Shown here one piece after another: positions 41,591 to 47,299 of a DNA stretch of 64,000 nt. Positions within the stretch are counted from its first letter, which is position 1. Every line of letters begins with the position of its first letter. The notes beneath the pieces are model-generated. The model did not search any database. It saw nothing but the letters and a program-made list of their open reading frames with translations, and was not told where the DNA came from. The position numbers and the translations under genes are program-made. The DNA is taken from the UHGV virus genome UHGV-0042229. One strand, 5' to 3'. Origin of the DNA: a virus.

Positions 41591-41607
41591 AGATTTATTA
41601 GAGCAAT
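41591..41607 (-). promoter_or_regulatory. C1 operator (1 mismatch)
   Basis: AGATTTATTAGAGCAAT. Confidence 0.6.
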
Positions 41608-42113
41608 TATTGTTGATGGAGAAGCGCGTTTTCATACTCCCTGACCATTAACGTAAGTACGCCGTGACTCCTGAAAACACGCGCCACTTCAATCTTATCT
41701 TCCAGCGCGAACGCGATTTTACTTAGACCAATTTTCTTAAGGAGATCAATCTTTGCTGGGCCGTCATTTCTGTCATCGGTGGCAGGACGCATAGATAGCA
41801 AAGGCTCAGCCCCATTTGTTACGTGCTTACGCAACCAGGCTCGTGTTTTATCCCTGGCTATCTCACAGCGCCCGGTTACAAACCAGAGGGTGTAAATGCC
41901 GGACAACTGGCGCACCATATCAATAACTGGAGTGATGGGAGCATCAGTGTCACAGGCGAGATTAAACTCGTTCCAGTCCTTTGTTAATGCACCTTTACCT
42001 GGTGGCGGAAGCAAATGCAGTCTGTCTTCAGTTGCCTCTGATATTGTTCCATCAATATCGACTATGACGATATACGGACGTTCCTGGTGTGCGTGTTTAT
42101 TGAAAATACTCAA
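41607..42113 (-). CDS. HAD-superfamily hydrolase-like protein
   Basis: 168 aa with HAD motif I DIDGT near the N-terminus. Confidence 0.45.
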   Translation of the reverse strand: MSIFNKHAHQERPYIVIVDIDGTISEATEDRLHLLPPPGKGALTKDWNEFNLACDTDAPITPVIDMVRQLSGIYTLWFVTGRCEIARDKTRAWLRKHVTNGAEPLLSMRPATDDRNDGPAKIDLLKKIGLSKIAFALEDKIEVARVFRSHGVLTLMVREYENALLHQQ

Positions 42114-42186
42114 ATGCCCTCCTCATTGGACGAAAAAAAATGCTGGTGGGCGCACTCCACCAGCATTAAAAGTGACACTGTAACTA

Positions 42187-43449
42187 TCAGCGGACGTAAA
42201 TAGTGCCGCAGTTCTCTTTTTCCCATGCATCGCTACGTGCATAGCAAACATCGAGAAGTCTTCTTGCCGCTGTTTCCTCTAAACCCAATTCGACAACCAA
42301 CTGCTCATGACGGCGGGTAACCACATCAAACAGGGTATGCAACCCTTTAGTTGCCAGATCATCAATGAATTCCGGTTCGAACGGCAGCTCTGCATCTGCC
42401 AACATAACCTCTTGCGCCCACTCAACTCGACGGACCAATTCCGGGCGGCGGCTTTCCATCTCTTTACAGATCAATTCATGGAAGAACTCTACCCAACCTT
42501 CCGGCTGGAACTCGCGGAAAATTGCCAACGGCTGGAAGTTTGGCATCAACCATTCGTTGATTCGGATATCAATGGCATAGCCCATGTCGCAGCAGAACTG
42601 ATAAGCAAAGTCCAGCTTAGAAACGATATAAGGACGCTCGTTATTGAACTCTTTAGGCGATGAGATCCCATAAGCCAGGAGGCGCGGGAAGAAGGAGATT
42701 TGCCCTAACGTCGGATGAAGTTTGCTTGCAGGGAAACGGCGCTCAGTAATGCCATACATTTCCTTCTTGAGCGTCGCAAATTTGGCATTCTCATTAACCA
42801 GCGCGGTAACCTCTGCTTTTTTATTAGCAAATGCCACGCGCGCTTCGCTTGCATCTTTAATAGTTTTTTTGAGCTGTTGGTTAAGGTCGGCGACCTGCTT
42901 ACGCAGTTCCTGTCGCTCGCTTTTAGCTTTGTTATAGCGTTTCTCAAGGTTAAAAGGATCAAGTTTCATGATCTCTTTATATTGAGATTTTAGCGTTGAA
43001 ATCTGTGAGTTCCGCAGTTCAACCATCGCGGTCATTTCATTGAGTTTTGTTTCCAGCTCAATGCTTATACGTTCGGCATTATCAGCACGCTGGTTGGCGT
43101 CATGCGTCGCATCGTCGATCGCGTCCTGTTGCTGGCGTTTCAAATGTTCAATTTGCAGCTGAAGCTCTTCAATTTCTTTACCCTTCAGACCGAGATCCAA
43201 CTGCATATTTTCAGCTGCATCTACCAGGGAGTTATGGCTATCAGCTTCTGCGTTATAAACATCAATAAGCTGTGCGTGAAGCATCTCCGCTGACTGAACC
43301 GCATTATCAAAAAAACGCGCTGTGAGGTCATCACAACTAACGCGGCGTTGCGCGGCCCGGATGTTCTGGATAATGGCCGGGATACCGGCATTCAGGACGT
43401 CAGGGATAGATACATTTTCGATTGATTGGTTTTGTGCTGAAGTGATCAT
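42187..43449 (-). CDS. coiled-coil protein, unknown function
   Basis: 420 aa; long heptad-rich central region, Cys/Trp-containing C-terminal domain. Confidence 0.45.
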   Translation of the reverse strand: MITSAQNQSIENVSIPDVLNAGIPAIIQNIRAAQRRVSCDDLTARFFDNAVQSAEMLHAQLIDVYNAEADSHNSLVDAAENMQLDLGLKGKEIEELQLQIEHLKRQQQDAIDDATHDANQRADNAERISIELETKLNEMTAMVELRNSQISTLKSQYKEIMKLDPFNLEKRYNKAKSERQELRKQVADLNQQLKKTIKDASEARVAFANKKAEVTALVNENAKFATLKKEMYGITERRFPASKLHPTLGQISFFPRLLAYGISSPKEFNNERPYIVSKLDFAYQFCCDMGYAIDIRINEWLMPNFQPLAIFREFQPEGWVEFFHELICKEMESRRPELVRRVEWAQEVMLADAELPFEPEFIDDLATKGLHTLFDVVTRRHEQLVVELGLEETAARRLLDVCYARSDAWEKENCGTIYVR

Positions 43450-43450
43450 T

Positions 43451-43669
43451 TCAAAGTTCCGTATTAGCTTGTGCTTCGGTCATTTTTCCTAAGTATGAAG
43501 GAGGAAGGACTACGCAATTTGTATCCAGTCCCTCACCTATGGCAGCCTGTAAAATTCTGGCTAAGGTGAGTCTCTTGTTGCGATACCTGGTGATGACATG
43601 CCTGATACCGCCGGTCGGCGTAACAAAGGCGATCAGCCAGTAGTGATATTTCCGTCGGAATGGCCACAT
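43451..43669 (-). CDS. hypothetical small protein
   Basis: 72-aa ORF at head of the minus-strand operon downstream of paired operators. Confidence 0.3.
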   Translation of the reverse strand: MWPFRRKYHYWLIAFVTPTGGIRHVITRYRNKRLTLARILQAAIGEGLDTNCVVLPPSYLGKMTEAQANTEL

Positions 43670-43690
43670 AGTGCACCTTGTAGATTGCTC

Positions 43691-45749: not shown

Positions 45750-46309
45750 TGAATTGCACTGCTCCTACTTGCATTCAAAATATGTAAATCTGCGTGTTTT
45801 TTGCGGGTATCCAGGAACTGCTGTTGCCATTTTGAAATAGACACCTGCGTTGGATTCCGTAGGGCTTGAGGGTGCGCGCCATGCCAATGAAGGCCGTTTT
45901 GCAGAGAACAGTCATAGCCGACTAATACAACTACTTCAGCCCCTGATTCAGCAGCCAGACTGATAGCCTGCGCGCCGCTATTTACCCCTTCCGCCGGTCC
46001 ACAATATCGCCTGTACTCCAACGAAAATGATTTCGCCGCCGCCAGGTTGGCTGTCACTTTGCGGAATTTCCCTCCCGGTATGGTGGATCCGTATTGCTTC
46101 CACCATGACAAATCACCGGCGTATAAGGCATAAATGTCATCGAACATCTGCCAGGAATTGTTAACCGCGATGATTGAACAGCCAGTTTTTTCTATAGCAG
46201 CACAGTCCTCACGAGTGAGTGACGGACCGCTACCGACACAAAAAATAGTCCTAGTCGCCCTGGGTGGTATGTTCATTCTCAGCTGCAAATTCAGCCTCCA
46301 GGCGAGCAT
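45647..46309 (-). CDS. hypothetical protein, paralog B (GSGPS..IIAVN family)
   Basis: TIFCVGSGPSLT...SIIAVNNSWQ...VLVGYDCS; overlaps paralog A by about 100 nt in another frame. Confidence 0.45.
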   Translation of the reverse strand: MLAWRLNLQLRMNIPPRATRTIFCVGSGPSLTREDCAAIEKTGCSIIAVNNSWQMFDDIYALYAGDLSWWKQYGSTIPGGKFRKVTANLAAAKSFSLEYRRYCGPAEGVNSGAQAISLAAESGAEVVVLVGYDCSLQNGLHWHGAHPQALRNPTQVSISKWQQQFLDTRKKHADLHILNASRSSAIQCFPRINLEAVIALLSSAVAQAPQTLLRRAECRL

Positions 46310-46448
46310 TCATTTCAGCGATTACCGGGTCCACTACAGCATCTGCTTCCTGTTCATTACGCGGCATGATCGATGCCAGCGATTCATAATTAGCCTTGGA
46401 TGACACGATTATTCTCCCGATGTTAATGTGCGCTGTATCAAAGAACAC
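46251..46448 (-). CDS. hypothetical small protein
   Basis: 65-aa ORF. Confidence 0.25.
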   Translation of the reverse strand: MFFDTAHINIGRIIVSSKANYESLASIMPRNEQEADAVVDPVIAEMNARLEAEFAAENEHTTQGD

Positions 46449-46472
46449 ATATGCACTAATTAATTTATTATT

Positions 46473-47051
46473 TCACGTAGCGAACAACCACTTGTCACCG
46501 TTCAATACATGCTCAATAGCCTCACCCTTTTTAAGGCTCATGTATTCCAGGATGGCGGTTATCGCTTGTTCTGCACCATACGCAAGAACGACGTAGTAAC
46601 CTTCCTCTCTAAGCCTGCGCATCCAGGCGATCTGCTCTTTCGTCGGGGCTTTACCATTTGGTTCTTTAAGCTCAATTCGCATGCCGTGATAAATACCGCA
46701 TGCTTTATCGAGACTCATGTCCGGATAACCTTTTTTCTGCCCTTCAGCCTTCATTTTCCCGGCGGTTGCTTTTGAACGTTTCCCTCCGTTAGGCGTTGCA
46801 TGCAACAGCTCATAGATGTCAGGGTGCTTGCGTTCGAAGTAATCAAAAATGAAAACCTGCTCGAAGTGCTCGCAATTTCCGTCGCGCAGGTCTGGGGTCT
46901 TTGCCAGTGCTGCAAGTGCCTTCGCATGTGGAGAAACTTCTTTTACCGGCGCAAGCGATAAGAATGGATCCTTTTTGGTTTTTGGCCTGGACTGCCCCTT
47001 ATTTCTACGCTCACTAAAAGCCTGAAACTCTTCCTCAGTAAAGCGCAACAT
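46473..47051 (-). CDS. VRR-NUC domain nuclease
   Basis: C-terminal GYPDMSLDKACGIYHGMRIELKEPNGKAPTKEQIAWMRRLREEGYYVVLAYG, typical PD-(D/E)xK VRR-NUC signature. Confidence 0.65.
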   Translation of the reverse strand: MLRFTEEEFQAFSERRNKGQSRPKTKKDPFLSLAPVKEVSPHAKALAALAKTPDLRDGNCEHFEQVFIFDYFERKHPDIYELLHATPNGGKRSKATAGKMKAEGQKKGYPDMSLDKACGIYHGMRIELKEPNGKAPTKEQIAWMRRLREEGYYVVLAYGAEQAITAILEYMSLKKGEAIEHVLNGDKWLFAT

Positions 47052-47053
47052 AA

Positions 47054-47299
47054 TCAGTCAAATCCTGCCGGTCGCATGCCATATTTACGCTGTTTTGCTG
47101 CCTGCTCTTCCCTGTGCCATTGCGCACACTCAGCGTCACAATAGATGCCTGATTCAATCGGTTCATTGCAGTAACGACACTTACCTGTAAATACCTGACT
47201 CACGACCTGTGCCTGCTTTCTGATGTTATCGATGGCCATGTCTTTGAGAGCTTCTAACTGATTCATGCTCAGCTCTGCATCATCAACACGTTCTGCCAA
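47054..47299 (-). CDS. DksA/TraR-type C4 zinc-finger protein
   Basis: CRYCNEPIESGIYCDAEC four-Cys motif. Confidence 0.6.
   Translation of the reverse strand: MAERVDDAELSMNQLEALKDMAIDNIRKQAQVVSQVFTGKCRYCNEPIESGIYCDAECAQWHREEQAAKQRKYGMRPAGFD

Follow-up and report, generated by a model that had tools for sequence, protein, structure and literature searches.

The pmgL-pap block of a P1-type phage-plasmid: a probable mosaic of C1-gated units with a candidate sugar-transfer module

The virus genome UHGV-0042229, a stretch of 64,000 nucleotides (nt) referred to here at its full length as the window, carries between positions 41607 and 47299 an array of ten open reading frames (ORFs), most of them lacking an assigned role. 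A sequence-only reading of this DNA took the array for a single C1-repressed operon of the kind typical of phage early takeover or anti-defence cassettes. The question raised by the locus is whether its genes make up one functional cassette at all and, if they do not, which of them belong together. The explanation that we favour overall, with somewhat more confidence than doubt, is that the block comprises several separately controlled units, and that one of them harbors a sugar-transfer module composed of pmgO, pmgP and pmgQ (O/P/Q).

The identity of the locus is virtually certain from sequence comparison: it is the pmgL-pap block of a P1-type (Punavirus) phage-plasmid. As had been noted, the ten ORFs all lie on the minus strand, are co-directional and tightly packed or overlapping, with intergenic spacing ranging from -103 nt (overlap) to +81 nt (gap). 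By megablast, the region shares 98.3% DNA identity over 6.6 kb with P1 (NC_005856/AF234172), 99.2% with other P1 isolates and 98.9%, across the full query, with vB_EcoM-673R5. The comparison of synteny with P1 that the sequence-only reading had suggested finds the block colinear with P1, where the feature table names the genes, in order, pmgL, pmgM, pmgN, pmgO, pmgP, ppp, pmgQ, pmgR, pmgS and pap. All ten window proteins have the same length and start codon as their P1 counterparts and 94-100% amino acid identity with them, PmgR matching at 72/72 residues and Pap at 158/168, and the match to P1 extends to the operators. In phage P7, the homologues of these genes carry hdm and sht names. The P1 genes were annotated in 2004 and, given the near-identity and colinearity of the two blocks, the locus itself is already known; as textbook P1, it calls for no new name.

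The genes at the center of the explanation proposed here are the following.

45647-46309, minus strand: pmgO, a probable MptE-like (DUF115) protein, the first of two paralogues.
45123-45749, minus strand: pmgP, the second paralogue, likewise probably MptE-like.
43751-44452, minus strand: pmgQ, a predicted GT8-like GT-A glycosyltransferase with an invariant D79-L-D81 (DxD) and H208-G-x-P-R-P.

What sets these three genes apart is their distribution. A scan of the genome contigs of species-representative genomes gave a set of 19 loci. Sixteen of these exceed 3.5 kb in length, and 15 of the 16 have relatives of both pmgP and pmgQ; the one that does not (L099) ends some 250 nt beyond pmgP. In 12 of those 15 loci the two are joined by a relative of pmgO. 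The order of the genes varies (O-P-Q, O-P-x-Q, Q-P, O-Q-P and P-x-Q-O), and the hosts include Enterobacteriaceae, Zhongshania, Commensalibacter, Brevundimonas, Sinomicrobium and Longimicrobiales, reaching as far as the Bacteroidota and Gemmatimonadota. The rest of the block behaves differently: ppp, pmgS, pmgL, pmgM, pmgR and pap are found in all three P1-type loci and in no other locus of the 19, and pmgN in two of the three P1-type loci and nowhere else in the set. The trio occurs also in the Citrobacter rodentium phage phiNP and its prophage form, in the Escherichia coli phage IME392 with the order O-P-GT1-Q, and in the jumbo Xanthomonas phage XacN1 as O-P followed by a TylF methyltransferase fused to PmgQ. 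Judged by this co-occurrence, pmgO, pmgP and pmgQ are a mobile module, and the only block genes that travel together outside P1. The ppp gene, which separates pmgP from pmgQ in the block, is absent from the non-P1 modules and is present in the P1 relative D6 in a different, nin-like neighbourhood that lacks O/P/Q; hence, it appears to be a P1-lineage insertion into the module. Two details of the compared loci deserve mention: in XacN1 (L113, 4300-10220) the gene following the fusion of the TylF-type O-methyltransferase with PmgQ encodes a 1088-residue protein with a weak PKD/Ig-like match, and on a contig of an E. coli lambdoid prophage (L108, 8552-9342) an apparent frameshift breaks the PmgQ homologue into two ORFs that overlap, the neighbouring PmgO and PmgP homologues being intact.

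The fold of PmgQ is one indication of what the module might do. The protein has no Pfam hit, and none to Glyco_transf_8 in particular; its family profile, searched against the Protein Data Bank (PDB), finds the GT8 enzyme 6mw5 (E 1.5e-6). An alignment of 26 sequences shows the DxD motif to be invariant and reveals the C-terminal H-G-x-P-R-P motif, which recalls the HxxGxxKPW motif of GT8 enzymes. The AlphaFold2 model (predicted local distance difference test score, pLDDT, 93.8) has exclusively GT8 enzymes as its top Foldseek hits (Gat1, glycogenin, LgtC and GlyE, E 1e-9 to 1e-7), with WbbM also among the matches. PmgQ thus has the GT-A fold and the DxD motif in common with glycogenin, Gat1, LgtC and GlyE, from which it differs by an identity of just 12-16% and TM-scores of about 0.55-0.6. 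On its modelled structure PmgQ is a GT8-like GT-A protein and a predicted glycosyltransferase, which sharpens its earlier description as glycosyltransferase-like with a DxD motif.

PmgO and PmgP had been recognized as overlapping tandem paralogues, an observation that profile comparison upholds and refines. BLASTP alone relates the two over just 36 N-terminal residues (E 0.004), and hhalign aligns them over 162 columns with a probability of 97.6% (E 4.3e-12), which identifies them by profile as true but old paralogues. Both match the MptE-like/DUF115 family PF01973 with scores (23.4 bits for PmgO and 21.0 for PmgP) that lie below its cut-off of 34.6, and the match is family-wide, since 26 of 28 PmgO-family and 24 of 29 PmgP-family members hit PF01973 at E<=0.01. 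The PmgO family is characterized by invariant GYDCS and HWHGxH motifs, both of which are missing from PmgP, for which 328 homologues were found. The PmgO profile also yields sub-threshold hits to CstII, and PHROGs labels the PmgO family 'alpha-2,3-sialyltransferase'. The two proteins are thereby weakly tied to the DUF115/MptE group, which takes in the Maf flagellin glycosyltransferases, the GT42 enzyme CstII and archaeal MptE, and stand apart from it as minimal domains of about 190-220 residues, paired as paralogues that have diverged from each other. The pyrophosphokinase MptE acts on a hydroxymethyl group; DNA hypermodification through MptE-type chemistry was considered and set aside, as nothing in the O/P/Q module or in P1 suggests hydroxymethyl-pyrimidine synthesis. 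On a separate note, most PmgO relatives start some 12-20 residues after the annotated start (46277-46309) and conservation begins at about residue 20, so the true start of PmgO may be Met12, with a shorter overlap with pmgN.

The genomic context of the module adds to this picture. Prophages of Pseudomonas, Ochrobactrum and Zhongshania have the module immediately after the major capsid gene and ahead of genes for the head-tail connector or head completion; those of the lambdoid type have it between the lysis genes and the terminase. A scan of viral contigs with the PmgP alignment returned P1-type loci only and was uninformative. With distant PmgQ sequences as seeds, a scan of IMG/VR yielded at least 579 matching viral contig stretches, from which 80 diverse loci were kept. 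According to labels from home-made hidden Markov models, with which Pfam agreed in the three loci checked, these 80 loci contain an MptE-like gene within 7 kb in 47 cases, a head-completion gene in 39, a gp6-type head-tail connector in 37, a portal in 27, an HK97 capsid in 26 and an FkbM methyltransferase in 17. Co-oriented genes recur in the order terminase, portal, capsid, MptE-like, (connector), PmgQ-like, (methyltransferase), connector and head completion, and the accessory genes found beside the module encode sugar-type methyltransferases (FkbM, TylF, Methyltransf_24) or additional glycosyltransferases. A different setting is seen in Pseudescherichia (L104, 2241-15359) and Serratia plymuthica (L003, 4513-17785), in which chromosomal islands interleave O/P/Q relatives with several Big_1/invasin-type adhesin genes, the Serratia island containing a lipoxygenase gene as well. 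These islands suggest that the module also serves in the modification of adhesins, a setting that fits protein glycosylation, if not specifically that of virions.

Three features suggest that the module takes part in protein glycosylation: the fold of PmgQ, the sugar methyltransferases nearby and the placement in head clusters or adhesin islands. On this evidence we lean towards O/P/Q being a glycosylation module. Its core, two MptE-like paralogues and a GT8-fold glycosyltransferase, would mediate sugar transfer late in infection, with a virion (head) protein as the likeliest acceptor, although this choice of target is a tentative one. There is a precedent in mycobacteriophages, where phage glycosyltransferases modify capsid and tail-tube subunits (Freeman 2023, cited through PMC12619734). 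The glycosyltransferase genes described there, sometimes together with methyltransferase genes, adjoin capsid genes, as the PmgO/P/Q relatives do. The systems differ in that the enzyme families here are GT8-like and MptE-like, the hosts are Gram-negative and the module is known from genes alone; moreover, the genes of P1 itself do not sit beside the capsid gene.

A glycosyltransferase need not act on protein, and PmgO/P/Q might instead modify the cell envelope, at the lipopolysaccharide (LPS) core or O-antigen, either masking the P1 receptor on lysing cells or converting the serotype of prophage-bearing hosts. P1 adsorbs to the LPS core, the fold hits of PmgQ include the LPS and lipooligosaccharide glycosyltransferases LgtC and WbbM, and lambdoid prophages hold the module at the moron site between lysis and terminase genes. 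Nonetheless, about half of the 80 kept environmental loci interleave the genes with capsid, connector and head-completion genes, where conversion genes are not usually found; O/P/Q is C1-repressed in P1 and hence off in lysogens, and no membrane or flippase component accompanies it. We consider an envelope role unlikely, and protein glycosylation the better account of the module.

How the module and its neighbours are expressed depends on the C1 operators and associated signals, which are as follows.

47357-47373, plus strand: Op82 (O26), a C1 operator with 2 mismatches to the consensus, in the control region from which pmgL and the baseplate gene 26 diverge.
About 47388-47416: late promoters LPpmgL and LP26, transferred from the P1 annotation.
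46450-46466, plus strand: Op83/Oppp, a C1 operator between pmgM and pmgN, downstream of the predicted promoter PpmgN, with 4 mismatches to the consensus.
43733-43749, minus strand: Op86a, a C1 operator overlapping the predicted promoter PpmgR.
43697-43724, minus strand: terminator-like hairpin between pmgQ and pmgR, an 11-bp stem followed by a U-run.
43684-43700, plus strand: Op86b, a C1 operator located by the consensus scan and by identity to P1.
42139-42167, minus strand: intrinsic-terminator-like hairpin between pmgS and pap, an 11-bp stem followed by U8.
41591-41607, minus strand: Op88, a C1 operator that in P1 controls the next unit (pmgT) and in the window precedes a 28-codon ORF only.

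The consensus ATTGCTCTAATAAATTT, scanned over the whole window with up to 3 mismatches, gives 15 matches against 0.30 expected by chance. Four operators had been proposed to bound the block, and all four (Op82, Op86a, Op86b and Op88) are present and identical to P1, the middle pair lying 7 nt away from the 43691 and 43740 first quoted for it. That list overlooked Op83, and it included Op88, which forms part of the promoter of the following gene (pmgT in P1), outside the block. Op83 exceeds the mismatch limit and is therefore absent from the scan matches; it was located through the P1 annotation and differs from P1 by 1 nt, reading TATGCACTAATTAATTT in the window and CATGCACTAATTAATTT in P1. 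The control region between pmgL and gene 26 is the same as that of P1 in 160 of 161 nt. The other 11 operator matches, at 11019-33237 and 57207-61533, include an overlapping pair (57207-57234) and fit a complete P1-type immunity network.

A single operon is not what these signals describe. The P1 annotation has separate sigma-70 promoter and operator sets for pmgL-M, pmgN-Q and pmgR-S, as well as the Lpa-dependent late promoter LPpmgL upstream of pmgL, and two terminator-like hairpins interrupt the array. The hairpin after pmgQ has a folding free energy (dG) of -13.4 kcal/mol (z -5.85), a value equalled by none of 200 shuffled sequences, and that after pmgS one of -18.1 kcal/mol (z -5.2); folding against shuffles revealed no terminator-like hairpin in the gap between pmgM and pmgN. 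The block is thus quite probably a mosaic of at least four C1-gated units. The first would consist of pmgL and pmgM, expressed from Op82 and LPpmgL; the second of pmgN, pmgO, pmgP, ppp and pmgQ, under Op83; the third of pmgR and pmgS, under Op86a/b and closed by a hairpin; and the fourth of pap. Since no terminator precedes the hairpin after pmgQ, LPpmgL should also drive pmgN-pmgQ, and late transcription plausibly reads through the second unit up to that hairpin. A difference from P1 is seen at 46479-46484, where the -10 hexamer of the predicted PpmgN is TTCGCT in the window and TATGCT in P1, in coincidence with substitutions at the C-terminus of PmgM; the promoter may be weaker in the window than in P1, or may not be a real one.

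The other genes of the block are listed here in their order of transcription.

47054-47299, minus strand: pmgL, an 81-residue putative DksA/TraR-like zinc-finger protein with Cys41, Cys44, Cys54 and Cys58.
46473-47051, minus strand: pmgM, a predicted stand-alone VRR-NUC (PD-(D/E)xK) nuclease with GYPD at 108-111 and E127-L-K129.
46251-46406, minus strand: pmgN, a 51-residue protein of phrog_2350.
44449-45141, minus strand: ppp, a lambda-type Ser/Thr (PPP-family) metallophosphatase, between pmgP and pmgQ.
43451-43669, minus strand: pmgR, identical to its P1 counterpart.
42187-43449, minus strand: pmgS, a 420-residue protein with a coiled-coil hairpin (about 41-232), a small beta domain (about 238-305) and a predicted C-terminal (HhH)2 domain.
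41607-42113, minus strand: pap, a predicted HAD phosphatase of polynucleotide-kinase 3'-phosphatase type, stand-alone, whose residues 19-23 read DIDGT.

Published genetics bears on whether these genes act against the host. Gonzales et al. 2022 (PMC9024508) made in-frame deletions of the block genes and find pmgR alone to be essential; the mutants that make infectious virions form normal plaques and are restricted normally on EcoA, EcoB and EcoK hosts, with pap and pmgT-V among the genes tabulated. In a genome-wide CRISPR interference (CRISPRi) screen, all ten genes scored as non-essential except pmgN, with an efficiency of plating of 1.4e-2 (PMC10695390); the screen did not score pmgR as essential, unlike its deletion (PMC9024508). 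The pmgN data are also in conflict, as its in-frame deletion is viable (PMC9024508) and its silencing lowers plating about 70-fold (PMC10695390), an effect that polarity on the genes downstream, which are dispensable, would not explain.

Were the ten genes a C1-repressed early host-takeover or anti-defence cassette, their nuclease, two phosphatases and glycosyltransferase would serve to neutralise host immunity. Such a role would accommodate the fact that every unit has C1 operators, and so is derepressed once C1 is inactivated, and the dispensability on laboratory E. coli K-12 of nine of the ten genes (PMC9024508; PMC10695390), as is usual for anti-defence genes. Pap, of the PNK 3'-phosphatase type, and Ppp could, by analogy, in principle reverse kinase-based or RNA-cleaving defences; the more specific notion of RNA end-healing by both against anticodon nucleases is kept within this alternative, as it amounts to a family resemblance only. 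No positive evidence for the cassette emerges, though. The normal restriction of the deletion mutants, which concerns type I systems only, and the morphogenetic role of pmgR (both PMC9024508) speak against it, as do the late promoter ahead of pmgL and the position of O/P/Q, which alone among the parts of the block moves as a unit, within late or head modules in other genomes; a PADLOC search of the block returned no meaningful hit, but just coiled-coil noise from PmgS. This interpretation, with which the locus was first described, now appears improbable.

At the other extreme, the historical gene names may be right and all ten genes may be virion morphogenesis genes, structural or assembly-related. 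PmgR deletion produces lysates with tails and incomplete heads that remain unjoined, and plaque formation is rescued in trans (PMC9024508); pmgR is the essential head-completion factor of the block, and the only gene among the ten whose morphogenetic role is experimentally supported. The block adjoins the baseplate/tail operon and has a late promoter, and relatives of O/P/Q are located in head modules. Against this, nine of ten deletions plaque normally and none of the ten products is reported in virions (PMC9024508; PMC10695390), and seven members have enzyme or DNA-binding folds instead of structural ones. The members do not all map to characterised structural genes, the 'pmg' names being nominal except for pmgR, and a wholly morphogenetic block is the least probable of the alternatives considered here. 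Several C1-gated units, one of them with a sugar-transfer module, remain in our view the best explanation of the locus.

That explanation has to be set against a number of observations that do not favour it. To our knowledge, no glycan has been reported on P1 virions, and GT8 enzymes build LPS cores too, so that the target may lie in the envelope. The neighbours of the module in P1 are pmgN, ppp and the baseplate operon rather than the capsid gene, and some bacteria hold it in non-phage islands, among Big_1/invasin adhesins or, on one contig, by a fimbrial operon. PmgO and PmgP stay under the PF01973 cut-off, their profiles searched against PDB sequences retrieve no significant solved structure and, given the pyrophosphokinase activity of MptE, these paralogues may by analogy not be transferases at all. 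As for the units, the transcript boundaries are those that we infer from the DNA, and the -10 hexamer of the predicted PpmgN is degraded in the window. The P1 virion proteome as reported (PMC9024508) includes none of the ten proteins, although an enzyme does not have to be part of the particle. The pmgO, pmgP and pmgQ deletions, finally, are among the mutants yielding infectious virions (PMC9024508), and the genes are non-essential by CRISPRi (PMC10695390); therefore, any decoration must be dispensable in the laboratory.

Taken further, O/P/Q could be the P1 version of a very widespread phage module, with one or two MptE-like proteins, a GT8-fold protein and often a sugar methyltransferase, that glycosylates virion (head) proteins in phages of Gram-negative hosts and has been recruited for Big_1 adhesins in some Enterobacteriaceae. 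We put this forward as a conjecture that is rather less likely than the glycosylation role itself. If true, it would extend virion glycosylation from mycobacteriophages to P1, lambdoid, HK97-like and jumbo phages, and would endow three 20-year-old 'pmg' genes with a function. Glycosylation of virions by O/P/Q would also bear on phage immunogenicity, on phage therapy and on the spread of protein glycosylation among phages. Searches of the literature on pmgO/P/Q, on DUF115 in phages and on capsid glycosylation found no functional study of the module, nor did the literature searched assign a function to pmgL, pmgM, pmgN, pmgO, pmgP, pmgQ, pmgS or pap. The hypothesis is directly testable, since P1 deletions of pmgO, pmgP and pmgQ exist already (PMC9024508). 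More generally, the block would consist of independent units and should not be mined as a single "cassette"; its residual interest resides in the O/P/Q module and in the domain assignment of PmgS.

This assignment adds to the 420-residue coiled-coil protein noted before a C-terminal (HhH)2 domain. An exhaustive search found 76 relatives of PmgS, about 30 of them full-length at 20-30% identity. The family profile matches (HhH)2 domains, namely the RAD51 N-terminal domain (E 1e-6) and the C-terminal domain of the RNA polymerase alpha subunit, and 12 of 35 family members match Pfam HHH_5. In the model of PmgS (pLDDT 87), a long hairpin of helices is accompanied by a small beta domain, and the C-terminus is helical. 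By sequence and model, PmgS looks like a coiled coil joined to a predicted (HhH)2 DNA-binding domain. This annotation is new, and 'PmgS-like head morphogenesis' is a mere label.

The first unit contributes a putative zinc-finger protein and a predicted nuclease, both of which had been identified in outline. PmgL, identical to its P1 counterpart in 80 of 81 residues, matches phrog_54 ('DksA-like zinc finger', E 1.7e-13) and has no Pfam hit at E<=0.01; the DksA/TraR description may be right, or nearly so. The zinc finger of TraR and DksA has the spacing CxxC-x17-CxxC, and that of PmgL is an atypical and shorter CxxC-x9-CxxxC. PmgM matches the solved stand-alone VRR-NUC structure PDB 4qbl (E 8e-17) and phrog_5702 ('Holliday junction resolvase', E 6e-27), and its Pfam VRR_NUC score (21.3 bits) lies just under the cut-off of 23.8. 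By fold match and by its GYPD...ExK motif, PmgM is a VRR-NUC family nuclease, as proposed, and would act, like the junction resolvases of phages, by trimming branched DNA ahead of packaging. Between this unit and the O/P/Q genes lies pmgN, whose product shares 48 of 51 residues with that of P1.

The two predicted phosphatases also fare as first described. Ppp is close to the lambda phosphatase (PDB 1g5b, E 1.5e-94), scores 59.3 bits with Pfam Metallophos against a cut-off of 21.5 and has a weak match to a bacterial Pnkp model; an NCBIfam search of the block proteins added nothing beyond Ppp. Pap, first read as a HAD-like hydrolase, scores 44.2 bits with HAD_PNKP (cut-off 27.6), carries the DxDxT motif as D19-I-D21-G-T23, matches phrog_415 and has a weak hit to Pnkp1; it is, by sequence family, a PNKP-type HAD phosphatase of predicted activity. 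The lambda nin region offers a parallel for both Ppp, in the lambda phosphatase (NinI), and PmgM, which like the junction nucleases Rap and NinG is a small phage enzyme of junction-nuclease type. The P1 block differs from that region in its genomic setting and in its regulation through C1 operators, and the VRR-NUC fold of PmgM is unlike that of Rap or NinG.

Downstream of pap, the window departs from P1. Homology ends at 41419, right after an unannotated 28-codon ORF, and in place of pmgT-pmgV the segment 38166-41419 holds a convergent hsdR gene for a protein of 1058 residues, which belongs to a type I restriction-modification (hsd) island, as in vB_EcoM-673R5. The 220 bp at this junction correspond, according to the P1 annotation, to sequence located downstream of hsdR in EcoDXXI and R124/3. 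The 28-codon ORF itself (MNTAFKIIMATIYFWLFSITFGGIVAHG, 41422-41508, minus strand), which in P1 is found ahead of pmgT with no coding-sequence feature, has a GGAG 8 nt upstream and lies just downstream of Op88, the PpmgT promoters and a 5' hairpin (41536-41558); its product is very hydrophobic and could be a small membrane peptide or a leader.

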